44,934 nucleotides of DNA from a virus (lineage: Duplodnaviria; Heunggongvirae; Uroviricota; Caudoviricetes), in the IMG/VR virus record IMGVR_UViG_3300045988_006673, positions 1 through 44,934 of that record; one strand, written 5' to 3'. Under the pieces are notes generated by a model. It was not told the origin of the DNA. It did not search any database and was given only the letters and a program-made list of their open reading frames with translations. The first letter of the stretch is position 1; each line of letters starts with the position of its first letter. Both the position numbers and the translations under genes were made by a program. Positions 6,729-32,351 of this stretch are shown piece after piece.

Positions 6729-7241
6729 TTAACCCCGGTACACGTTAAACGAGAAGCCATTGTTAAGACCACCACACAGTAACGGGCGTAAGGCGTCGTC
6801 AGCAGCGGTAATGGCAGTTGTAGCTCCACTGCTGCCGTTGTTGAAGTACGTCACTGTCACAGCACCCTCAACACGCTCAGTCTGCACAGAACGACCGTCT
6901 GAGTTAGCCCGCACCTCAGTACCGGCACCATATGTAGCGGCGGCGATTACCTGCGCAAGAATAACCTGCTTCGGAATGGCGTTGTTAGCCGCCGGGAAGC
7001 CGTTTAACGTAACACCGGTGCGCGGGTACGCCAGAGACTGTTCAGCGGATACGCGACGCCCACACATCTGCGGTTCCGCGAGCCCGACATATGTAGCGCC
7101 ATTGCGCAGGGCTACTTCTGCAGCGGTATCGTCGGTGGGCAACTCCAGACCGTAATTAGCCGCTAACGCGCGGGCGTCAGCCAGACTAATGTAGCTGTCG
7201 GCATTCGGGACGATTGCCCCAGTTTCCACGATTAGCGGCAT
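6729..7241 (-). CDS. Head-tail connector protein (gp6-like), putative
   Basis: 170 aa; N-terminal YISLADARALAANYG pattern typical of gp6-like connector proteins; position after capsid genes. Confidence 0.45.
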   Translation of the reverse strand: MPLIVETGAIVPNADSYISLADARALAANYGLELPTDDTAAEVALRNGATYVGLAEPQMCGRRVSAEQSLAYPRTGVTLNGFPAANNAIPKQVILAQVIAAATYGAGTEVRANSDGRSVQTERVEGAVTVTYFNNGSSGATTAITAADDALRPLLCGGLNNGFSFNVYRG

Positions 7242-7244
7242 AAA

Positions 7245-7424
7245 TTATTCCTCTGACTTACGGCGACGACGCTTAGTACCACCGCCGTTGTTGTGCGCTT
7301 CTTCATTGTCTGGTTGAGTCGCAACCAGTTCATCCGCCTCTACCACACCGCGAACAGGCATCACCTGACCGTCAACAATATCAACGTGGGTGTACTTTTC
7401 GCGGATTACATAATTATCTGCCAT
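7245..7424 (-). CDS. Small hypothetical protein (59 aa) with basic C-terminus GGGTKRRRRK
   Basis: ATG at 7424 preceded by AAGGAAAGG RBS; not in ORF track (<60 aa). Confidence 0.35.
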   Translation of the reverse strand: MADNYVIREKYTHVDIVDGQVMPVRGVVEADELVATQPDNEEAHNNGGGTKRRRRKSEE

Positions 7425-7440
7425 GACCTTTCCTTATTAC

Positions 7441-22975: not shown

Positions 22976-23215
22976 TTATTCACGGCAACCTCCCTCAGAG
23001 TCGTCGGCACGAGCATCATGATTCGATGCCGTTGTGTATATTTCCGCTTCGGCCTTAGTTACCGGGATTGTGTATCTCCCTGTCTTAATCCACCAGCCGC
23101 CGTTACAGGAATCCAGCACATCAAAAACATCACCGATATTTACGCCTATGCTTTCCAGAGTATCTTTAGCTGTTTCATAGGTAACGGTGTTATCTGTAAT
23201 TATGATTTGCATCAC
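22976..23215 (-). CDS. Hypothetical protein (79 aa)
   Basis: ORF in early leftward operon. Confidence 0.4.
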   Translation of the reverse strand: MMQIIITDNTVTYETAKDTLESIGVNIGDVFDVLDSCNGGWWIKTGRYTIPVTKAEAEIYTTASNHDARADDSEGGCRE

Positions 23216-23403
23216 TTCGCCCCTTTGAATTTAAAATTGTTGCCGATGAGTTTTAGCTCGTGTCCTCTGTACCAGATACCAAAAGACCAATACGGATTAG
23301 TAATAAGATACAGGTCCACGAGTCTCTTAGAAACGTGCCTAATTACCCCGACCCCGTTGCACTTTGTTTTCACCAACTGACCCTTCTTAAACATAACCCT
23401 CAC
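23212..23403 (-). CDS. Hypothetical protein (63 aa), first gene of the early leftward operon
   Basis: ORF starting about 25 bp downstream of promoter P5. Confidence 0.4.
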   Translation of the reverse strand: MRVMFKKGQLVKTKCNGVGVIRHVSKRLVDLYLITNPYWSFGIWYRGHELKLIGNNFKFKGAK

Positions 23404-23428
23404 TCCTCTGTCCCGTTTCGATAAGTGA

Positions 23429-23457
23429 ATAGTATCCTATTATGTTGGGGTGTGCAA
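23429..23457 (-). promoter_or_regulatory. Class I promoter-like element P5 (minus strand): TTGCAC-N17-TACTAT, spacer ACCCCAACATAATAGGA
   Basis: Reverse complement nearly identical to P1 and P2. Confidence 0.5.
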
Positions 23458-23827
23458 GAGAATAGTTACGTTGCCGTTGTGATTCTTCAGGTAGGGTTGT
23501 GCCTTTATTCTTATTACTTGGTAACTAAAGGGCAGGCCTTAAGCCTGCCCAATAATCGTTACATTTTTACGGTTGCGAATCTACGGCACATTAAGAAAAT
23601 CAGATACTTAAGAGATATGCCGCCGATGAGAATAGAGCTTGCCCAGGGCAACCGGAGATACTTAGGAAGGAAAGTTACGATAATTCTCATGTTCAGTAAG
23701 CCTGTGTTTAACCCTTTGCTTGTCGCACGGGTTAAACATTCTTACAAGGTGAACAGGAATCAAAGTAACTAAGATACAGAAGCACCTTAAACGAAGATTT
23801 TCATAATGTCAATAGGTGCGATTATGT

Positions 23828-23856
23828 TTGATTTCCCATTATTCGCAATGTATACT
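23828..23856 (+). promoter_or_regulatory. Rightward early promoter: TTGATT-N17-TATACT
   Basis: Sigma70-like hexamers at 17-bp spacing, about 30 bp upstream of the 23889 start. Confidence 0.5.
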
Positions 23857-23888
23857 AGATTTCGTTAACTGATAATGAGGGTTTTAGA

Positions 23889-24059
23889 ATGACACAGAAT
23901 GAGGTAGCCGAGCGTATCGGGGTTACTCGTCGCACACTGAATAACTGGTTAAAGAGTGGGAAGTTTCCGGATTGTTGTATTCGCATTATGGGCCGCCGGC
24001 AGCCAGGTACGTTTGACCCGGAGAAAGTGGAAGCGTGGATTAAGGAGAACGTGAAATGA
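23889..24059 (+). CDS. AlpA/Xis-like HTH DNA-binding protein (56 aa)
   Basis: MTQNEVAERIGVTRRTLNNWLKSGKFP matches the AlpA-family HTH pattern; RBS AATGAGGG; not in ORF track (<60 aa). Confidence 0.55.
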   Translation: MTQNEVAERIGVTRRTLNNWLKSGKFPDCCIRIMGRRQPGTFDPEKVEAWIKENVK

Positions 24060-24289
24060 CCGAATTCCAGTCACGCGTATTTACGGCGGTCGTTTCGTTA
24101 ACATGTAAAAAAGGGTCGTGCAGCGTTATCGACTTGCGCCGCAGTTATTTTAAGTACTATAGTTCCGCCATTATTGAAGGGTCGTTGAGGGTGCTGGTTA
24201 AATCTGGTGTCGTGAAAAACACTGGCGGGAAATATAGCGCCGTTGCTGAAGTTCGTGGAATGACCGCTACTTTAGAAGACCTGGAATAA
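24056..24289 (+). CDS. Hypothetical protein (77 aa) ending in LEDLE
   Basis: ATGA overlap with upstream gene. Confidence 0.4.
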   Translation: MTEFQSRVFTAVVSLTCKKGSCSVIDLRRSYFKYYSSAIIEGSLRVLVKSGVVKNTGGKYSAVAEVRGMTATLEDLE

Positions 24290-24346
24290 AAGAAAGCCCC
24301 GACGTTAGAGCGCCGAGGCCAAATTACTTGCTGAAGGAAATACAAC

Positions 24347-26617
24347 ATGTCCGATGTAATTTTATCCTACTCGTGGTCTCGTCGCAACGCGCGAGCGGAG
24401 AAAAAGGATATAAACGTCAGAACAACACACACGGCAACACTGGACGACCTGAAAGAGTTAATCCAGCCACTAGATGCCGTTCGTGGCGGAATTAACCCGA
24501 AGACCGCGCCCGGTTATATCACTGCCGCGTGTGACTCTACACACAGCACCGTAAAAGACCCGGAAACCGGTGACTTTAAGCAAGCGCGTAAAGGCTTCTT
24601 CTATCGCTGTGATGCGTCTGTAAGCAAATCGTCGCTGGCGTATCTGGACTTCGACAGTGCAACACCGGAAGAGTATCAGAGAGCTGTGCGCCTGGTTAAG
24701 CGCAGCCGCCAGGCTATGTGCCTTTACACCACGGCATCCCATACTGATGAGGCCCCACGCTTCCGCGTCGTCGTGCCGCTAGGTTGCCCGGTTGAAGGTG
24801 GCGACATCATCCGTGTTCGTCATGGATTGCTGGAGCATTTCTTCAAAGGTATGGGCGCGGACCGCAGCGGTTTTACTCTGTCCCAGCCTATGTACCTGCC
24901 ACCGGTTGGCTCTACCGTTATCTGGTCTCGTCGCAACGACCTGATTGACCCGAACGAGTTACTGGAAGGCATCCCCGCCGTTGACGTTAGCAGTGCATCG
25001 GATTACCAGATACCGGAAGAACTGCGCACCGCGTTTACTGATGCGTTCGAGGCACTGGCGTTCGAGTATGGCGGCATCATGACGCCGCGCGGCCTGAAAA
25101 TGCCAGCTACGCCGGAACACGCGGAGAACTACAGCGACCCTACGCCGCGCCCGGATGACTTCCTGCTGTGCTTCCCGCGTGAAGGGTACGAAGCGCCCAA
25201 CGTAGCAATGATTCACGACACCGACATTACGGCGACAGAAGGCATGTCACCGAAAGAGGTGTGGAAGTATGCGTGCGACGCGACTGGTCTTCCGTTCAGT
25301 GAAGTCGCCGAGGCTATCGGCTGGGGCGCACGTGAGTCAGTTTTGTGCAGCCTCGACGACCTGGAAGACGACGAGGACTCAGAGGAGGACGAGCTACCGG
25401 AACCGGTAAAGGCCGATTTCGTCGTTGAAGGGTACATGCCGTCGGATTGTATCTGGGATATCGTCGGGGAATCTGGCACGTACAAATCGTTCTATACGCT
25501 GGGGATGATGTACCTTAGCGCCGCCGGATACCGGTTTGCTGGGGCGGACACCCAGCGTTGTCACCATTTCTATATCGATGGTGAGGGTGGTGCAGCCACA
25601 CGTACACGTATTGATGCGCTCGCGGCTAAATACGGCGCGGAAGGTAAAGATTATGTACATGTCATTGATATGGGAGAAGTTGGAAAACTGAAAAGTCTGA
25701 TTAAGCTAATGCGCGAAACTGCTGGCGACGAGCCAATTGGCATGGTTGCGTTCGACACCCTCAACCAGACGCTGGCCCTGACGATTGATAAGTTCGACGA
25801 GAACAGCTCCTCAACAGCAATCGGCATGGGTAAAGTTATCGCCATCCTGAAAGAAGTACGCGACGCGACTAAAGCCGCGGTAGGCGTTGTCCACCATACC
25901 CCGAAGGGTGGAAAGAAAGCCCGCGGCAGTGGGGCATTGTATGCTGGTGTCGATGTGGAGCTAACAATTGAGCGTGCGACCGATCGCCAGATAAACGTAT
26001 ACCACTCGAAATTTAAGCACGGGCCTCAACAGAAGACGGTGGGCATGGTGCTGGAGTCGGTACAGTTCCGTGAAGCGCCGCCGCCGAAAGAATACCGTGC
26101 GGTTGAGTTCATCGGTAACACAGAGGAATACGGCACAATCGTAAACCTCGACCTGCCGGAACCACACAAGGCGCTTGTACTGATGCCGTGGGGCTTCGAG
26201 CCGTTCAAGACTGACGAGGAGAAAGAGCGGGAAGAAGGACTGACAAATGAAGGTAAAGCGGCCGTTAAAGAAAAGGTAGGCCAGTTTGAGAAACTGGATA
26301 CCAAAGAAGCTACGGTTATTTACGCATTAGGTAAATTGCAGGAGCAGGGTGATGACAAGCGAGGGTTCTCCATGTCCGCTATCGTCAAAGCGGCAAAAGA
26401 AGATAGTTACGGCGTACCGATTAACGCTAACAACGACCTTCGAAAGAAACTGGAAGAGATGCACGAGGCAGGGGTTATCGTCTCAGGACTGGATAACAAC
26501 AACAGGCCTATACCTAAGCAGTACCGTCTGCCGTGGGGTATAAACGACAACAAGATTCCGAAGACAATATACGAACCGAATGAAATGCTGGTGGTGACAG
26601 AGGAGGATTTGGAATAG
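24347..26617 (+). CDS. Primase-polymerase / RepA-like replicative helicase (756 aa)
   Basis: N-terminal region with LAYLDFD acidic motif (primase-like); central P-loop GESGTYKS and RecA/AAA_25-like core; GAAGGAAA RBS. Confidence 0.65.
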   Translation: MSDVILSYSWSRRNARAEKKDINVRTTHTATLDDLKELIQPLDAVRGGINPKTAPGYITAACDSTHSTVKDPETGDFKQARKGFFYRCDASVSKSSLAYLDFDSATPEEYQRAVRLVKRSRQAMCLYTTASHTDEAPRFRVVVPLGCPVEGGDIIRVRHGLLEHFFKGMGADRSGFTLSQPMYLPPVGSTVIWSRRNDLIDPNELLEGIPAVDVSSASDYQIPEELRTAFTDAFEALAFEYGGIMTPRGLKMPATPEHAENYSDPTPRPDDFLLCFPREGYEAPNVAMIHDTDITATEGMSPKEVWKYACDATGLPFSEVAEAIGWGARESVLCSLDDLEDDEDSEEDELPEPVKADFVVEGYMPSDCIWDIVGESGTYKSFYTLGMMYLSAAGYRFAGADTQRCHHFYIDGEGGAATRTRIDALAAKYGAEGKDYVHVIDMGEVGKLKSLIKLMRETAGDEPIGMVAFDTLNQTLALTIDKFDENSSSTAIGMGKVIAILKEVRDATKAAVGVVHHTPKGGKKARGSGALYAGVDVELTIERATDRQINVYHSKFKHGPQQKTVGMVLESVQFREAPPPKEYRAVEFIGNTEEYGTIVNLDLPEPHKALVLMPWGFEPFKTDEEKEREEGLTNEGKAAVKEKVGQFEKLDTKEATVIYALGKLQEQGDDKRGFSMSAIVKAAKEDSYGVPINANNDLRKKLEEMHEAGVIVSGLDNNNRPIPKQYRLPWGINDNKIPKTIYEPNEMLVVTEEDLE

Positions 26618-26634
26618 GTAAAAAGAAAGGGGCG

Positions 26635-26850
26635 TTAAGCCCCTTCACCGAACGCCAGCCACTTAGCGTCTACCTGCAGCACTTCCGCCAGTTTAAACAG
26701 TGTCGCCGGACGTACGTCCTGAGTTACCCCGAGTGCCAGTTGGTTAATCGCGCCCTGGGAAACACCGGCCAGGACAGCCAGACGGCGCTGGGAGATGCCG
26801 AGTTCTTTGCGGCGTTGTTCTACGCGAATGCCTAGTTCAGATGGTTGCAT
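26635..26850 (-). CDS. XRE-family (Cro/CI-type) HTH transcriptional regulator (71 aa)
   Basis: ISQRRLAVLAGVSQGAINQLALG is a canonical HTH_XRE segment; divergent from the operator-bearing promoters at 26871..26943. Confidence 0.7.
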   Translation of the reverse strand: MQPSELGIRVEQRRKELGISQRRLAVLAGVSQGAINQLALGVTQDVRPATLFKLAEVLQVDAKWLAFGEGA

Positions 26851-26870
26851 GTCAGTTACTCCTTAGTCAG

Positions 26871-26943
26871 TTGATATGTGAATAGTACCATATTAATTAT
26901 TTTAGAAAAGCCCATTGACAAGTGAATAGTTAGCTATTATAGT
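26871..26943 (+). promoter_or_regulatory. Tandem class II promoter-like elements (TTGATA-N17-TAATTA at 26871..26899; TTGACA-N17-TATAGT at 26915..26943), each carrying a GTGAATAGT operator-like site
   Basis: Two consecutive -35/-10 pairs with conserved spacer TGAATAGTTAGCTAT between the XRE gene and the 26975 gene. Confidence 0.5.
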
Positions 26944-26974
26944 TAGCCCATACCAAACGAGAGGAGAGAAACAA

Positions 26975-27475
26975 ATGTTAGAGAAATTCTTAGTATTACT
27001 TGAACGTTTCGTAGTTGCCCACGAACTGATTGCCGCGAACAGTGCGAAACGACCGGTGCCGCCGGCTGAGCGTGTAGGTGAAATGCTTGTAGACGTGTCG
27101 GTTACGGGAGAGGTACTTGAAGTCGACCCAGGCACTGGCGTAGGGAAAGAAATACCGGTGGAAGGCGAAGACATCGTCGACACTAAACCGGCAGAAGACG
27201 AGAAGCCGAAACGCAAGCCGCGTAAAGCTAAAGTTGAGGAGCCGACACCAGAACCGGAAGAAGAAGTAGATTACCAGTCTCTTCGTGACCAGATTCAGGC
27301 TATCGACGATGCAATAAGTGCCGGGCCTAGTAATAAGGCTTGCGCCGATGCCGATGATCTGCTGGAGGAGTTCACCGGTAAACATTTCCAATTAGCTAAG
27401 ATTAAAGACGAAGACCTGCCCGAGTACCTTGAACGCCTGACGACAATCAAGAACAAGTATTTCGAAGAAGAATAA
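26975..27475 (+). CDS. Hypothetical acidic protein (166 aa)
   Basis: ATG with GAGGAGAG RBS; Glu/Asp/Pro-rich centre with basic KPKRKPRKAK patch. Confidence 0.45.
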   Translation: MLEKFLVLLERFVVAHELIAANSAKRPVPPAERVGEMLVDVSVTGEVLEVDPGTGVGKEIPVEGEDIVDTKPAEDEKPKRKPRKAKVEEPTPEPEEEVDYQSLRDQIQAIDDAISAGPSNKACADADDLLEEFTGKHFQLAKIKDEDLPEYLERLTTIKNKYFEEE

Positions 27476-27518
27476 CTATCCCGCGGCCTTCGGGCCGCTT
27501 TAACTGAGGGTCAGAAAT

Positions 27519-27791
27519 ATGATTTACCAACTCTACCGCGCCGTAGACAGGCGGGATAACACAGAGGCGCTATGGCTGTTACGTGCGCCGTCCGGTGCGC
27601 ACCTGATGGAAGAGATGGCGTACTTAGGCAAAGTACCGCGACCTAAAGATATAGGCCGCCACGTGTCACAGATTAAGCGCACGACTTTCGCCAAACCTGA
27701 CTTTTATGTATTCGAGTCGATGTATGGGTGGGCTATGCACTGCGAGCATAAGACACGACATTTAATCGACCAGTGGGAGAACCGGGTATGA
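27519..27791 (+). CDS. Hypothetical protein (90 aa)
   Basis: ORF; stop overlaps downstream nuclease start (ATGA). Confidence 0.4.
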   Translation: MIYQLYRAVDRRDNTEALWLLRAPSGAHLMEEMAYLGKVPRPKDIGRHVSQIKRTTFAKPDFYVFESMYGWAMHCEHKTRHLIDQWENRV

Positions 27792-29098
27792 TTTTAAAGG
27801 AACGCGGCGGCAATAATGATGTGCACGCCTTACTGTCGCCGTCAGGTGCTAAAAAGTGGCTAAGCTGCGCGGCATCGTTGGCCTGTGAAAAAGATATTCC
27901 TAACACTTCGGGTAAATCCGCCGTTACAGGGACTGCGTGCCACACTATAGCAGAGGTCCATCTAAACCAGTACATCAAAGGCACTGCGTTGCCGTTGGAG
28001 CGCGAAGTCGGTGCTTACGTGCTGGATGAGGGTAAAGGCCAGATTAAGGCGCTAATCAGCCCGATGAAGGGCGCGGTACTGATTACGGCGGATATGATTG
28101 AGCAGGTGCGCAAGTACACCGACTACTGCAAAGCGATTATAGATGTAGCGACTTACGCCAAGCTGGAAATGCGCGTCAATCTTACTGAGGTATTGCATCC
28201 GGGGTACAAAGTACCTGCTGGGAGTGAAGAAGGTAAGGAGGATGGTTTAGAGACATTCGGAACAGCCGACTTAGTGGCGGTTATAGAAGGCTTTACGGGT
28301 GAGAGTAACTCAGCGATGCTAATTATCGGCGACCTTAAAACAGGACGGCATCGGGTCGAAGCGAAAGAAAACAAGCAGCTTATGCTTTATGCGCTCGGTG
28401 TATATCGCCGACTCAAGAGACGTTATAACATCACAGTTGTTCGTCTGGTAATCTTCCAGCCGTACGCTGGCGGTGCGTTGGAGTGGGACATTTCGGTTGA
28501 AGGTCTGGAACTGTTCGCTAAGTTCGCACAGAAACGAGCACTGTTAGCTCTTGATGCCTATTCCCGTGGCAAGAAGAATCTGAAAGCGTCGGATTTCAGG
28601 CCGTCGGTCGATGGGTGCCAGTGGTGTCGGTTCTCTGAACAATGCGCCGCGCGTACAAAGACGGTTAATTCTGTACTGGCGGAAGAACTGGAAGACGACT
28701 TTGCGCTGGAGCTTACGCCGGAGCAACTCGTAGCTGAGTATGAGAAGTTGCCGCTGTTGCGCCAGCACATCGACAAGGTTGAGAGAGCTATGGCTGCCGC
28801 GTTGCATTCTGGCAAGAAAGTGCCTGGGTACAAGCTGGTCGAAGGTCGCCCGGGTAATCGTGCGTGGAAAGATGCGAAGGAGGTAATAGACGCCGCAGAA
28901 TTTTATGAAATAGACCGGAAAATGCTGTTTAAGGCGTCTCTTGTGTCTCCTAAAGAAGCAGAGGCCGCGTTCAAAAATACCGATGCGTGGCCTATTCTCG
29001 AAAAACTAATTACCCGTAAGCCCGGCGCACCATGTGTCGCAACGACAGATGATAAACGGCCTGAGTGGAATCAGGTAACAGAGGAGGATTTGGAATGA
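27788..29098 (+). CDS. PD-(D/E)XK exonuclease (DUF2800 / Cas4-RecB-like) with C-terminal Cys cluster
   Basis: C-terminal CQWCRFSEQC cluster typical of Fe-S containing RecB-family nucleases; adjacent to SSB-like gene; start chosen at ATG 27788. Confidence 0.65.
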   Translation: MILKERGGNNDVHALLSPSGAKKWLSCAASLACEKDIPNTSGKSAVTGTACHTIAEVHLNQYIKGTALPLEREVGAYVLDEGKGQIKALISPMKGAVLITADMIEQVRKYTDYCKAIIDVATYAKLEMRVNLTEVLHPGYKVPAGSEEGKEDGLETFGTADLVAVIEGFTGESNSAMLIIGDLKTGRHRVEAKENKQLMLYALGVYRRLKRRYNITVVRLVIFQPYAGGALEWDISVEGLELFAKFAQKRALLALDAYSRGKKNLKASDFRPSVDGCQWCRFSEQCAARTKTVNSVLAEELEDDFALELTPEQLVAEYEKLPLLRQHIDKVERAMAAALHSGKKVPGYKLVEGRPGNRAWKDAKEVIDAAEFYEIDRKMLFKASLVSPKEAEAAFKNTDAWPILEKLITRKPGAPCVATTDDKRPEWNQVTEEDLE

Positions 29099-29253
29099 TT
29101 AGTAAAATTGTGTATTGGGCTTTATTATCACCGTTGATAGTTATATCTGCTTTTACTTCATTTTTTGCTTGGGTAGATCGTAAGTTTAGGGGTAGCCCAC
29201 CCATAGAACGCTATGTTCTTTGGTGTGAAAAAGTTTCTAAAATTAAGCGTTGA
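29095..29253 (+). CDS. Small membrane protein (52 aa)
   Basis: ATG 8 nt after GAGGAGG, overlapping nuclease stop (ATGA); one hydrophobic helix. Confidence 0.4.
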   Translation: MISKIVYWALLSPLIVISAFTSFFAWVDRKFRGSPPIERYVLWCEKVSKIKR

Positions 29254-29278
29254 CACCTGAATAGTTAGCTATTATAGT
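29250..29278 (+). promoter_or_regulatory. Class II promoter-like element: TTGACA-N17-TATAGT, spacer CCTGAATAGTTAGCTAT
   Basis: Near-identical to 26915..26943; upstream of SSB-like gene. Confidence 0.5.
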
Positions 29279-29332
29279 TCTAATCACTGGCCGGGCAGCT
29301 TCCCGGAGTAAACTTAAAAGCGAGAAATTAAG

Positions 29333-29959
29333 ATGGGACTGAAATTAAATCTGCGTAAAGTAAACACTGCTTGGGTTAACGTATTTGAACGCGAAAAAGA
29401 CCGTGAAAACGATGATGGCTCAATCACTAAAGGTCGGTACAGCGCAACTATCATCCTGCCGTCTGACCATGCTCAAATCGACGCGCTTTACGACACTGTT
29501 TACGCTGTAGTCGAAGAAGCATTAGGGGCCGCCGCTGCTGAGAAGTGGATGAAGTCCAACTACGGCGAAGGTAAGCACATGGATAAATGTGCGATTAAAG
29601 ACATTGCCGAGCGAGACAATCCGTTTGAAGACTTCCCGGAAGGCTTCTACTTCAAAGCGAAGGCACAGAAACAGCCACTGATTGTAACATCTAAAAAAGG
29701 TGAGACTCAGGTAGAGCAGGATTTCAACGTAGACGGTGGACAGATTGAAGGCGAACAGGTTTACAGCGGCTGCGTTGCTAACGTAAGCGTAGAAATCTGG
29801 TTCAGCCAGAAATACAAAGTCCTCGGCGTTAACCTGCTGGCTATTAAATACGTTGGCGAAGGTAAAGCGTTTGGTGGTTCTAAAGTCGCCGCAAGCGTCA
29901 ATGACCTGGAAGACGACGAAGAAGATGAAGCACCGCGCCGCGAACGTCGCCGTCGCTAA
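29333..29959 (+). CDS. ssDNA-binding protein-like (DUF2815 family), acidic C-terminal tail
   Basis: Gene order DUF2800-DUF2815-DNA polymerase typical of this replication module; C-terminal DLEDDEEDE tail. Confidence 0.5.
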   Translation: MGLKLNLRKVNTAWVNVFEREKDRENDDGSITKGRYSATIILPSDHAQIDALYDTVYAVVEEALGAAAAEKWMKSNYGEGKHMDKCAIKDIAERDNPFEDFPEGFYFKAKAQKQPLIVTSKKGETQVEQDFNVDGGQIEGEQVYSGCVANVSVEIWFSQKYKVLGVNLLAIKYVGEGKAFGGSKVAASVNDLEDDEEDEAPRRERRRR

Positions 29960-29980
29960 TATCTGAATCAATTTAACTAA

Positions 29981-30001
29981 GGCCCTTCATTGGGCCTTTT
30001 T
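29981..30001 (+). terminator. Rho-independent terminator GGCCC-TTCATT-GGGCC-TTTTT
   Basis: GC stem followed by five T, just after the SSB-like gene. Confidence 0.65.
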
Positions 30002-30170
30002 ACTAAGGGTCGAAAATAATGTTTTTCTGTAGGCACGTTTATCGCTATATGAAACCGCTTCCGTGGTACGCAGATGAGTACCGGGCCGGGTACAGGCATG
30101 TGTGGATTTGCCGTGATTGTATGAAAATAAGATTAAGCGAAACGAAGGCACTGGATTTAAGGAAAAAGAA

Positions 30171-32351
30171 ATGAGCTACTTATACCTGGACTTTGAAACA
30201 TTCTCTGATGCCGATTTAAAGAAAGTCGGCTCCTACGCTTACGCCGAACATCCATCCACCGAAGTGCTCATCTGCGCATACGCTTTTGACGACGAACCTG
30301 TTCAGGTGTGGGATTGCACTGACGGCAGCGACATGCCAGGCGATTTGCACCGCGCACTTCGCCGCCTGGTGAAGCCTAACAGCCGCATCAAGATGGTATG
30401 GCACAACGGTTCAATGTTCGACAGGCTCATCATGAAACACTGCTGGGGCTTTGATATTCCGGTAAGCAACACCATTGATACGATGATTTGGGCTTTTCGT
30501 CACGCGCTGCCGGGTTCTCTTGATGCGTTGTGTGGGGTGCTGGGTGTGTCGGCAGACAACGCGAAAGATAAACGAGGCAAGGCGCTGATTCAGCGTTTTT
30601 CTAAACCGACGCCGAAGAACTACAAAATTCGCCGTTACACTGCTGAAACCCACCCTGACGAATGGGTGCTGTTCATCAAGTACGCCGTGAGTGACATTAC
30701 TGCGATGCGTGAAGTCTTCAATAAGCTGCCGCGTTGGGGTAACTCTGAGTTTGAAGACCGTGTACTGGAACTTGACCAGTTAATCAACGACCGCGGGTTT
30801 AAGGTCGACGTGGCACTGGCGGAAGCCGCGATTGAAGCCGTGGAGAAACACAAAGCACAGTTACAGGAAGAAGCCCAACGTAAATACGGCGGCTCGCTTA
30901 CTGGAAAGGACTTTCTGCCGATTCTACGTGAACTTGCCCCCGCGCACCGCATCCACAATGCGCAGAAGTCGACGCTGAATGACCTGTTGGCGGACGATGA
31001 TTTACCGGACGACGCCCGCACGATTATCGAAATGCGCCTCGGGGCTGCATCCACCGCGTCAACGAAATATAACCCGCTGCTCTTGGGCCGCTCTGCGGAC
31101 GACCGACGTCGCGGTTGCATCCAGTACGGTGGGGCTAAGCGTACGTTGCGGTTTGCTGGTAAAGGATTCCAGCCGCAGAACCTGGCGCGCGGGTACTATC
31201 ACGACGATGAACTGGATAAAGGCGTTTCTGCGTTACTTAAGGGCCGCGCCCATCGCCGTTTCGATGTAGCCAAGCTAACGGCCTCGACGGTTCGTAGCTG
31301 CATCATACCGGAAGCAGGGCATAAGTTTGTCGTTGCCGATTACTCGAACGTCGAAGGCCGCGGTTTGGCATGGCTGGCGGGAGAAGAAACCGCGCTCGAT
31401 ACGTTCCGCGCCGGGCTGGACATTTACTGTGTAACCGCGGGTAAGATGTTCGGCATGGAACCGGATTACATTAAGAAAGAACGTAAAGACCTACGCCAGA
31501 TTGGTAAAGCCTGTGAACTGGGCCTAGGCTACGCCGGGGGTGTCGGCGCGTTCGTTCAGTTTGCTAAGAACCTCGGACTTGACCTTGTCGATATGGCTAA
31601 AACAATGGATGGGACATTCCCTGACCATATATGGGCAGCTACCGCACGCGGGTATGAGTGGGCGCGTATTCAGGAGGCAAAGCGACCACCGCGCCCCGGT
31701 GAAAAGGACGACAGACCGTCGTATATTCTTGATAAGAAAGTGTGGCGTACCTGTGACGCTATCAAGCGCATGTGGCGCGAGTCTCACCCAGAAACCGTAG
31801 CTTTCTGGCGGGGTATTGAAGACGCAGCTATGGCCGCCATCCGCAACCCAGGTAAAGAGTTCACCGCAGGGCCGCGCGGCGTTAAGTTTTCGCGTAACGT
31901 AGAGACAGACAACAACGGCAACAAAGTCGCGGGCTGGTGGTTGCGCATGACGTTGCCGTCGGGTCGCGTTATGTCATACCCGGGCGTCGGGTTAAGCGTG
32001 TCGAAAGAAACAGACGAAGATGGAAAAGTGTCTACTAACGTGCGCATCAAGTACCAGGGGGAGAATCAGCTAACCCGCAAGTGGGGCTTCCAGTACACCT
32101 ACTCCGGTAAACTGGTGGAAAACTGCACCCAGGCATTGTGCCGTGATTTGCTGGCTAACGCGCTGCTGAACGTAGAAGCTAACGGCTACCCGATTGTACT
32201 TCATGTTCACGATGAGATTATATGCGAGACACCAGATTTACCGGAATACAATGTGGCTGAGCTGGAAAAATTAATGTGTGAATTACCGGAATGGGCCGAG
32301 GGGTTCCCTCTTGTGGCGGAAGGTGCGGAGATGAAGCGTTATGCTAAGTAA
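30171..32351 (+). CDS. Family A DNA polymerase with 3'-5' exonuclease domain
   Basis: Exo I motif YLDFETFS near N-terminus; 726 aa from ATG 30171 (track ORF extends to 30117). Confidence 0.8.
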   Translation: MSYLYLDFETFSDADLKKVGSYAYAEHPSTEVLICAYAFDDEPVQVWDCTDGSDMPGDLHRALRRLVKPNSRIKMVWHNGSMFDRLIMKHCWGFDIPVSNTIDTMIWAFRHALPGSLDALCGVLGVSADNAKDKRGKALIQRFSKPTPKNYKIRRYTAETHPDEWVLFIKYAVSDITAMREVFNKLPRWGNSEFEDRVLELDQLINDRGFKVDVALAEAAIEAVEKHKAQLQEEAQRKYGGSLTGKDFLPILRELAPAHRIHNAQKSTLNDLLADDDLPDDARTIIEMRLGAASTASTKYNPLLLGRSADDRRRGCIQYGGAKRTLRFAGKGFQPQNLARGYYHDDELDKGVSALLKGRAHRRFDVAKLTASTVRSCIIPEAGHKFVVADYSNVEGRGLAWLAGEETALDTFRAGLDIYCVTAGKMFGMEPDYIKKERKDLRQIGKACELGLGYAGGVGAFVQFAKNLGLDLVDMAKTMDGTFPDHIWAATARGYEWARIQEAKRPPRPGEKDDRPSYILDKKVWRTCDAIKRMWRESHPETVAFWRGIEDAAMAAIRNPGKEFTAGPRGVKFSRNVETDNNGNKVAGWWLRMTLPSGRVMSYPGVGLSVSKETDEDGKVSTNVRIKYQGENQLTRKWGFQYTYSGKLVENCTQALCRDLLANALLNVEANGYPIVLHVHDEIICETPDLPEYNVAELEKLMCELPEWAEGFPLVAEGAEMKRYAK

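Follow-up and report, generated by a model that had tools for sequence, protein, structure and literature searches.

Acidic docking tails at protein C-termini, such as those of T7 gp4 and gp2.5 and the tip of the bacterial single-stranded DNA-binding protein (SSB), are a known kind of element, as is translational coupling through a Shine-Dalgarno (SD) sequence placed inside an open reading frame (ORF). The terminal Phe of the T7 acidic tails is a critical anchor, and the tip of E. coli SSB, Asp-Phe-Asp-Asp-Asp-Ile-Pro-Phe, is an interaction hub. [quoted passage not shown] The SSB family of phage Enc34 has the T7 gp2.5 fold and a disordered acidic tail, whose tip occupies a neighbouring molecule's groove in the crystal (PMC5686142). 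According to a reverse primer in the same paper, the Enc34 SSB ends in WDEDEV (PMC5686142), the type of tail that we report below for Chi-like phages. Here we describe a short acidic tail common to several replication proteins of a Caudoviricetes virus, IMG/VR record IMGVR_UViG_3300045988_006673, of which the whole analysed stretch of 44,934 nucleotides is called the window. In two of the genes the tail is encoded by an identical 19-mer, ACAGAGGAGGATTTGGAAT, which we think is likely to be one stretch of codons read in two ways, as a docking peptide and as the SD sequence of an overlapping downstream gene.

The region matched 451 phage records, 330 of them Salmonella phages, and the best match was Escherichia Kagunavirus at ~91% identity. 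The window is therefore a Kagunavirus/Jerseyvirus-type phage, a siphovirus of the Guernseyvirinae; a metagenome contig labelled Caudoviricetes sp. encodes an identical nuclease protein. This affiliation made the finding testable in ~170 related loci, which were gathered by probing IMG/VR with the nuclease and by adding annotated GenBank records of progressively more distant phages. The GenBank phages were chosen for a common module, consisting of a DUF2800 nuclease, a gp2.5/Enc34-type SSB, a family A polymerase and a primase-helicase, and were Dhillonvirus (phage Gluttony), Edwardsiella eiAU-183, APSE-7, Chi-like ST-101 and Caulobacter RapA. Deep protein searches returned close relatives only (at least 76% identity among the 120 nuclease matches listed, and 71-94% for full-length matches of a 77-aa protein described below), so the distant lineages were reached through these loci.

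A conserved acidic C-terminal motif on replication-module proteins

The two copies of ACAGAGGAGGATTTGGAAT are exact and lie on the + strand at 26597-26615 and 29078-29096, where a sequence-only reading of the window had placed them. No further match was present in the window with up to three mismatches allowed, and none was expected from 100 shuffles, by which a chance origin of the pair was rejected. Copy 1 consists of the T-E-E-D-L-E codons of the helicase-primase gene (24347..26617, +; 756 aa; phrog_3228 'replicative helicase-primase', with an AAA_25 helicase domain at residues 352-522) and the first base of its TAG stop. Copy 2 covers the T-E-E-D-L-E codons of the gene for a DUF2800 / PD-(D/E)XK nuclease of 436 aa (27788..29098, +, from the ATG at 27788 to the TGA ending at 29098). 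The translations read ...MLVVTEEDLE and ...WNQVTEEDLE, in agreement with the ends VVTEEDLE and QVTEEDLE given by the sequence-only reading, and the TLEDLE end that it gave for a third ORF was likewise correct: the 77-aa protein encoded there (24056..24289, +; phrog_5169, a family of unassigned function) ends ...GMTATLEDLE. These three proteins have a common C-terminal end, [AV]-[TS]-[DE]-[DEG]-D-L-x.

Such ends are far in excess of expectation. Three six-frame ORFs of the window end in [DE]DLE against 0.03 expected (Poisson 6e-6), and the five occurrences of [DEN]DLE in ~13,900 aa of coding potential all fall in four replication proteins, namely at the three C-termini, in the tail of the SSB and in a linker of the helicase-primase (DDLEDDEDSEEDELPE, residues 337-352, nt 25355..25402, +) just N-terminal of its helicase domain. 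The linker is a second copy of the acidic-D-L-acidic core and is kept as DEDLDDDP or DEDLEDEP in other lineages. A separate observation is that window positions 25349-25377 (linker, SLDDLEDDE) and 29894-29922 (SSB tail, SVNDLEDDE) are 86% identical as DNA across 29 nt, and here again the acidic-D-L-acidic motif is spelled in similar codons. Within IMG/VR just one other Kagunavirus contig carries two exact copies of the 19-mer. It also closes one ORF on each of two AT-rich contigs unrelated to the window (L177 1232-1438, ...ITEEDLE*; L180 3718-4125, ...LTEEDLE*), both near terminase-like genes and without a start codon adjoining them downstream; these occurrences may be accidental or may belong to a more widespread C-terminal motif.

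Alignment of orthologs bore out the tail as a conserved peptide, kept with different codons and, in distant lineages, with a different gene order. Among the 120 close homologs of the nuclease that were listed, 119 end in ...DLE and the remaining one in ...DLEA. Kagunavirus/Jerseyvirus relatives retain the tail on both helicase and nuclease despite differing DNA, and about half of their nuclease genes spell it GTT AGT GAA GAA GAT TTR GAA TAA (VSEEDLE). The tail of the 77-aa protein is spelled CTG GAA GAC CTG GAA and has no overlapping gene. The acidic segment stands at the extreme C-terminus outside the folded domain (TEEDLE, TEEDLE and LEDLE in the three carriers). In the structural model of the 77-aa protein (mean predicted local distance difference test, pLDDT, of 84.7), three helices and a beta-hairpin form a domain with values >90, residues 67-77 are disordered and the tail falls below 50. 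The best structural matches of this model are all winged-helix domains (MotA N-terminal domain, LexA, IclR, IdeR and RPA32C; template-modelling scores of 0.6-0.74, with weak E-values), and we refer to it as a predicted winged-helix protein.

The same motif recurs in the SSB. The SSB of the window (29333..29959, +) falls in Pfam Enc34_ssDNA-bd, the gp2.5-like Enc34 family, and its C-terminal region has ...SVNDLEDDEEDEAPRRERRRR. The tail that follows the oligonucleotide-binding (OB) fold reads ...SVNDLEDDEEDE (nt 29900-29929) and then ends in the basic sequence APRRERRRR; DLEDDEEDE, which the sequence-only reading had noted near this C-terminus, was found as ...NDLEDDEEDE ahead of RRERRRR. In the SSBs of all lineages with DL-type tails the motif comes directly after the OB fold, as ...[ST]ATDDDLxDDD... 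or ...SVNDLEDDE... (examples are ...GGSTATDDDLSDDDD..., ...ETATDDDLGDDDD... and ...VATDNDLDDDD..., with ...AASVNDLEDDEEDE... in the window), and it is the A-T-D-D-D-L motif of the helicase and nuclease tails of the same lineage. In the Chi-like lineages the helicase-primase tail likewise resembles that of the same phage's gp2.5-type SSB, all of these proteins ending in ...DEV or ...DEL. The tail is probably a docking peptide copied from the phage's SSB. A side observation concerns the remainder of the DL-type SSBs (window, L051, L058, L062 and L076), in which the tail is extended by alternating acidic and Arg/Lys-rich blocks and closes with an Arg cluster. Such an end is unusual for a gp2.5-type SSB, which is normally acidic at its end.

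More distant lineages, in which the nuclease is 45-57% identical and the helicase is encoded on the other strand, also have the motif at the C-terminus of both proteins. In L051 the helicase ends ...ASDEDLNS, the nuclease ...ATDEDLE and a 62-aa protein ...ATDEDLE; the corresponding helicase and nuclease tails are ...ATDDDLKD and ...ASDEDLNDE in Dhillonvirus and ...NSDLED and ...DDDLVD in eiAU-183. Chi-like phages have ...EWEDEV or ...DDEDEV on the primase, ...DDDDEV on the nuclease and ...DWEDEV on the SSB. The tails of L162/L163 are ...DDDDEL, ...DDEDDEL and ...DDDDDDL, and those of RapA are ...DDDGV and ...DDDQV. From lineage to lineage the tail type (...DLE, ...DDLxD, ...DEV, ...DEL) switches jointly in all carriers, and the polymerase was without a tail in every lineage examined. 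The 62-aa carrier of L051 is unrelated to the 77-aa protein of the window except in the last 11 residues (MTATxEDLE; 8 of 11 identical), and therefore unrelated scaffolds carry the same tail. The number of carriers per genome rises to six for ...DEV in Chi-like phages and to five for ...DEL in L163. With the tail pattern of each lineage, ORF ends were enriched in Chi-like L158 (6 vs 0.12 expected) and in L163 (5 vs 0.14) as they were in the window.

Among 14 nuclease lineages, a permutation test showed a closer likeness between helicase and nuclease tails within a genome than between tails paired across lineages. Anchored at the end and scored over the last six residues, the observed value was 7.5 against 1.3 +/- 1.9 for shuffled pairings (p ~0.0008); scored by the best 5-mer, the test gave p ~0.003. 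A conserved, co-varying and SSB-like acidic C-terminal motif is a property of replication-module proteins and is restricted to them in the material covered. Among the additional carriers in Chi-like phages are a helix-turn-helix (HTH) DNA-binding protein, a phrog_7721 protein adjoining the nuclease and the small terminase subunit (loci L158 10792-11361, L163 10363-11046, L158 613-954 and L158 4096-4515). Their tails follow the lineage, with ...DEV or ...DDV in L158, ...DEL on the terminase and ...EDL on the phrog_7721 protein in L163, and DEL or EDL in L163/L164. The tail on the small terminase hints that packaging may be tied into the same docking system.

Generic acidic appendages, acting as self-inhibitory DNA mimics or as solubility tags without any common receptor, might converge on a similar composition. 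The acidic tails of gp2.5, gp32 and bacterial SSB do also regulate the DNA binding of their own proteins, and all of the carriers found here are DNA-binding or DNA-processing proteins. The likeness between the tails is, however, positional and not only compositional (A/V-T/S-acidic-acidic-D-L, or a terminal V as opposed to L), it changes in step across 3-6 proteins per genome, and in the unrelated small proteins it extends to 8 of 11 residues. We consider this explanation rather improbable and prefer a shared docking peptide. Several points nevertheless weigh against the docking peptide as well. The tail patterns used for the enrichment counts were chosen after the data had been seen, and the lineages in the co-variation test are nested, so that only ~3-4 independent changes of tail type underlie its p-values. 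There is no C-terminal aromatic anchor: the tails end in Glu with Leu at -2 as the sole hydrophobic residue, or in Val or Leu elsewhere. The SSB copy of the motif is internal in the lineage of the window rather than terminal, and the AlphaFold2 model of the nuclease (mean pLDDT of 43, from a shallow alignment) is too poor to show that its tail is disordered.

Shine-Dalgarno spelling and the overlapping gene

The nuclease copy of the 19-mer has GAGGAGG at 29081-29087, followed after a spacer of 7 nt by an ATG at 29095 that overlaps the TGA stop of the nuclease as ATGA. The sequence-only reading had seen this arrangement correctly except for the spacer, which it gave as 8 nt. The ATG opens a gene for a small membrane protein of 52 aa (29095..29253, +), and the stop codon of this gene lies within the -35 box of a sigma-70-type promoter for the SSB and polymerase genes (29250..29278, +; TTGACA, 17 nt, TATAGT), which forms the right boundary of an accessory-ORF slot behind the nuclease. 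The helicase copy also contains GAGGAGG and has no start codon downstream of it in the window. That this copy is followed by a stop and no gene, as the sequence-only reading stated, holds for the window, but 15 of 49 helicase genes in relatives have an ORF with an ATGA overlap at this place.

Nuclease genes of the Kagunavirus/Jerseyvirus type have two 3' haplotypes with almost no intermediates. Where the gene ends in GTT AGT GAA GAA GAT TTR GAA TAA, the TTGACA promoter of the SSB gene follows directly and there is no ORF between them. Where it ends in GTA ACA GAG GAG GAT TTR GAA TGA, an ATG overlaps the stop and a small ORF fills the space up to the promoter. Both the ORF and GAGGAGG were present in 22 of 51 nuclease genes and neither was present in 27; two had the ORF without GAGGAGG and none had GAGGAGG without the ORF (Fisher 2e-12). 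The association was weaker in 49 helicase genes, 12 of which had both, 20 neither, 3 the ORF alone and 14 GAGGAGG alone (p 0.015). On a tree of the nuclease gene body the two states are interleaved and require at least 7 changes, where shuffled states require 14.6; at no point are they uncoupled. Divergent Jersey-like genomes repeat the rule, with GTT ACG GAG GAG GAT TTG TAATG where an ORF follows and GTT ACT GAA GAC GAT TTA GAG GCT TGA where none does. An SD-compatible spelling of the tail codons is thus tied to the presence of an overlapping downstream gene.

The ORFs that occupy these slots are varied. Those behind the helicase belong to families of 104, 65 and 36 aa. Behind the nuclease, at least five unrelated families begin at one and the same ATGA after one SD spelling; they include membrane proteins (52 and 78-83 aa) and soluble proteins (57, 60 and 67 aa). 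The 52-aa ORF behaves as a real gene: it is 83-90% identical in 10 GenBank records, all of them Salmonella Jerseyviruses and the only places in which the version of the window was found, and its family has an excess of synonymous differences (16 vs 12 codons between the window and L012). Related membrane proteins (MI[RK]K..., a transmembrane segment with a conserved Pro, ...[RK]Y...EK[IV][ST]G.K.) occur behind the nuclease in lineages with 44-56% nuclease identity, and a membrane-protein gene at this place is, by this distribution, old. Translation of the 52-aa ORF in the window is probably coupled to that of the nuclease by way of GAGGAGG in the tail codons, as the spacing from an SD-like sequence to a stop-overlapping start suggests (7 nt, within a range of 5-10 nt). 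The SD and ATG of the nuclease copy are unstructured and not buried in RNA structure. Only the terminator hairpin behind the helicase gene folds better than shuffles, and an Rfam search of 23000-30500 with E up to 1 gave no structured RNA match; a structured RNA element was rejected on these grounds.

Two findings temper the coupling interpretation. GAGGAGG is retained in 14 of the 34 helicase genes without a downstream ORF, the window included, and in the remaining ones the SD has decayed to GAGGAA, GAAGAG or GAGGAT. In addition, the spelling depends on the downstream gene, but the SD codons and the ORF are <20 nt apart, and the association may partly reflect this tight physical linkage instead of selection at each switch; since the two are adjacent, the pattern also fits two junction haplotypes moved by recombination.

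Could the RNA layer be all there is, with the peptide a by-product of the need for an SD sequence and without a function of its own? GAGGAGG does translate as Glu-Glu in this frame, and both sites are accessory-gene slots. Yet the peptide is kept without GAGGAGG and without a downstream ORF in 27 nuclease and 20 helicase genes, the 77-aa protein encodes its tail in other codons with no overlapping gene, distant lineages keep T-D-[ED]-D-L in other codons again, and the SSB has the motif internally. The comparison of orthologs already contradicts this explanation, which we regard as very improbable. Docking and coupling had been put forward by the sequence-only reading as alternatives. The core of each was supported, and we favour the view that the two operate jointly, layered on one set of codons.

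Identity of the two copies

The exact match between the copies is the extreme of a continuum. Across genomes the helicase and nuclease tails share 12-18 of the last 18 coding bases, and they are identical over all 18 in 3 of 47 genomes only. Once the peptide TEEDLE, the SD sequence (GAG GAG G) and the ATGA overlap (GAA TGA) are given, only the third positions of the Thr, Asp and Leu codons are free. In the window the similarity of the copies reaches 22 of 23 bases (GGTrACAG..., 26593-26615 vs 29074-29096), and their identity stops where the shared peptide does, the neighbouring Val codons being GTG and GTA. The two copies are probably identical through having the same peptide in the same SD-compatible codons, with the helicase copy keeping this spelling although the ORF is absent here.

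An origin at the level of DNA was weighed against this. Ectopic gene conversion, or a cassette that moves together with its 5' junction, could have transferred tail DNA between the two gene ends, and the 19-mer would then be mainly a recombination junction. Recombination at tail DNA does occur. The nuclease of L019 is followed (at ~7215-7440) by a 60-aa cassette ORF that has tail DNA repeated directly on both sides of it, on the left ...GAGGATTTAGAATGA and on the right ...GAAGATTTAGAATAA followed by the promoter; the right repeat corresponds to a nuclease end of the non-SD kind, a duplicate that lies to the right of one of the SD type. The two nuclease 3' haplotypes (GTT AGT GAA GAA vs GTA ACA GAG GAG) are sharply distinct and have been shuffled relative to the gene body at least 7 times, unrelated cassettes have exactly one common left junction, and both slots have a similar right-hand promoter repeat. 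Two further observations were made at such junctions: the accessory protein of L019 itself ends in ...KKEDLE, owing to the flanking tail repeat, and in L011 another cassette is inserted exactly within the former TAA stop of the nuclease.

On the other side, the identity of the copies is confined to the shared peptide, with the Val codons already different, and the same accessory cassette was not found at both the helicase and the nuclease slot among the loci examined. The Leu codons (helicase/nuclease) were TTG/TTA in 10 genomes, TTG/TTG in 3 and TTA/TTA in 2 and so are not concordant within genomes, which argues against ongoing gene conversion; together with the 12-18 of 18 identical bases, this left that process without support. 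The peptide is moreover conserved in lineages whose DNA cannot be aligned, and copying therefore cannot explain the tail itself. We regard a DNA-level origin as unlikely. Recombination at the tail DNA could have contributed to the spelling found in the window genome, but such a contribution is not needed.

The copies are also exact direct repeats 2481 bp apart, as the target-site duplication or attachment-site (att) pair of a 2.48-kb element (26616-29077) might be. The genes between them (repressor, phrog_3127, phrog_4965 and nuclease) stand in the same order in all Kagunavirus/Jerseyvirus relatives examined, no transposase, integrase, HNH or homing endonuclease gene was found in the interval, and both repeats lie inside conserved coding sequence for a peptide that is older than the genus. 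As the interval is a syntenic core without mobility genes, an insertion scar was rejected and is in our view hardly credible. The same evidence, with the identity that stops at the peptide edge, the synonymous sites that do not track and the 3 identical genomes of 47, speaks against the portable translational-coupling module that the sequence-only reading offered as the cause of the identity. The coupling part of that proposal fared better, GAGGAGG and TGA being strictly linked to the ATGA-overlapping ORF.

Other features of the region bear on the two slots. A hairpin with a T-run directly 3' of the helicase stop (26626..26646, -) is the terminator of a convergent HTH (Cro/CI-type) repressor gene (26635..26850, -) and fills the slot that holds an accessory ORF in relatives. 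A 30-nt promoter-like repeat (TTGACAnnTGAATAGTTAGCTATTATAGTT) is present in four copies, at 23418-23447, 26871-26900, 26915-26944 and 29250-29279. Two of these score 11/12 against the sigma-70 consensus, and a short inverted repeat, AATAG-N4-CTATT, runs from the spacer into the beginning of the -10 hexamer. Their positions, on either side of the HTH repressor gene and ahead of the replication operons, make it probable that the four copies are early promoters under control of the repressor. Within the primase part of the helicase-primase gene, a 16-nt sequence (TGGTCTCGTCGCAACG) is repeated exactly and in direct orientation (24374-24389 and 24923-24938, 549 nt apart). In the nuclease, C27, C277, C280 and C286 are invariant down to 26% identity and, together with the nuclease motif D161, D182 and K184, suggest an iron-sulfur cluster like that of Cas4/AddB.

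A candidate docking system and known relatives

We infer docking from the co-variation of the tails, their independence of codons and their match to the SSB, which also bear out the proposal of the sequence-only reading that the acidic tail is a shared peptide at the protein level; that reading named the polymerase or the SSB as partner, and for the partner we can offer candidates. In the mechanism that we propose, a disordered acidic C-terminal peptide with the core [AV]-[TS]-[DE]-[DE]-D-L-[E], carried by the helicase-primase, the exonuclease and the winged-helix protein, matches the start of the acidic tail of the SSB and would dock its carriers on one shared receptor at the fork, as in T7 gp4/gp2.5. 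Helicase-primase, nuclease, SSB and DNA-binding protein would then be recruited to one site or exchanged there. The small winged-helix/HTH carrier could bring the receptor to a DNA site such as an origin, and recombination-dependent replication would be served by recruitment of the tailed exonuclease to intermediates that SSB or polymerase has bound. At the RNA level, GAG GAG GAT followed by GAA TGA would provide a strong SD sequence 7 nt before the stop-overlapping ATG, from which we infer that translation of the accessory gene depends on coupling; this gene is the 52-aa membrane protein in the window and one of various small ORFs behind either gene in relatives.

By analogy with T7, our preferred candidate for the receptor is a basic surface of the family A DNA polymerase (30117..32351, +; 744 aa), a guess to which we give somewhat less than an even chance. 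The polymerase is favoured because it is the only universally conserved core protein without a tail and because it is the receptor in T7. An alternative is the groove of the SSB for single-stranded DNA (ssDNA), a second candidate suggested by the crystal contact of Enc34. As a side observation, some Jersey-like relatives (L041, L043, L045 and L046) have a polymerase ORF of 1032 aa instead of ~730 aa, which suggests an insertion (an intein or an endonuclease domain) in the polymerase gene.

A broader reading, which we put only just short of even, is that the tail is a C-terminal 'address tag' specific to each lineage, an acidic peptide resembling the SSB tail and having one hydrophobic anchor, which 3-6 proteins of a genome share without being otherwise related and which co-evolves with a single receptor hub. 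The carriers would be the helicase-primase, exonuclease, SSB, the small winged-helix/HTH protein, an unassigned conserved protein and the Chi-like small terminase. Factors of replication and recombination, and perhaps also of packaging, would in that case be rivals for a single docking site, and in Guernseyvirinae the codons of the tag would additionally be the ribosome-binding site of hypervariable accessory-gene slots.

A docking peptide of this kind would give a simple wiring rule for a replication module that is widespread, in Guernseyvirinae, Dhillonvirus, Chi-like, Enc34/Nazgul-like and many other phages, and biochemically unstudied. Its carriers would meet at the fork and compete for one site, and the DUF2800 exonuclease and the small DNA-binding protein would join the replisome. 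The variants DLE, DDLxD, DEV and DEL would be natural specificity swaps through which the receptor could be sought. In the DNA, the arrangement would be a case of dual coding, in which the synonymous codon choice within a functional peptide is set by the translation of the next gene. The two tail-coding gene ends are also hot spots for gain and loss of small accessory genes in phages that are candidates for therapy. What is new relative to the known docking tails and coupling signals is the motif itself, with Leu at -2 or a terminal Val/Leu and no aromatic end; its presence on the DUF2800 exonuclease, winged-helix/HTH and other proteins, with co-variation across 3-6 of them; the SSB motif turned internal; and the reuse of tail codons as the ribosome-binding site of two slots. 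No description of a shared tail in these phages was found in the limited literature searched, which is weak evidence of novelty.

The closest parallel is T7, where, as here, a primase-helicase and an SSB of the gp2.5 fold have similar short acidic tails with one hydrophobic anchor and a family A polymerase without a tail is encoded by the same phage. The present tails differ in their sequence, ...[TS][DE][DE]DL[E], in which Leu stands at -2 and Glu replaces the terminal Phe of T7, in occurring also on the DUF2800 exonuclease and the winged-helix protein, and in the SSB copy, which is internal and followed by an Arg-rich end. The bacterial SSB tip is likewise a short acidic and hydrophobic peptide that ends a disordered tail and recruits proteins at ssDNA. 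Bacteria, however, have one carrier and many pockets, whereas the many carriers here imply one or few pockets. The SSB of the window belongs to the family of the Enc34 ORF6 SSB (DUF2815 / PF10991), whose tail is acidic and disordered and whose WDEDEV end is the tail type of Chi-like primase, nuclease and SSB; the Enc34 paper covers the tail of the SSB only, with no same tail on a primase-helicase or other proteins and no use of the term exonuclease (PMC5686142). The downstream gene resembles known cases of ATGA translational coupling in having GAGGAGG 7 nt before an ATG that overlaps a TGA and in the conservation of the downstream ORF. It differs in that the SD sequence is written in the codons of a conserved peptide, and that this spelling recurs at two gene ends and marks two hypervariable slots.

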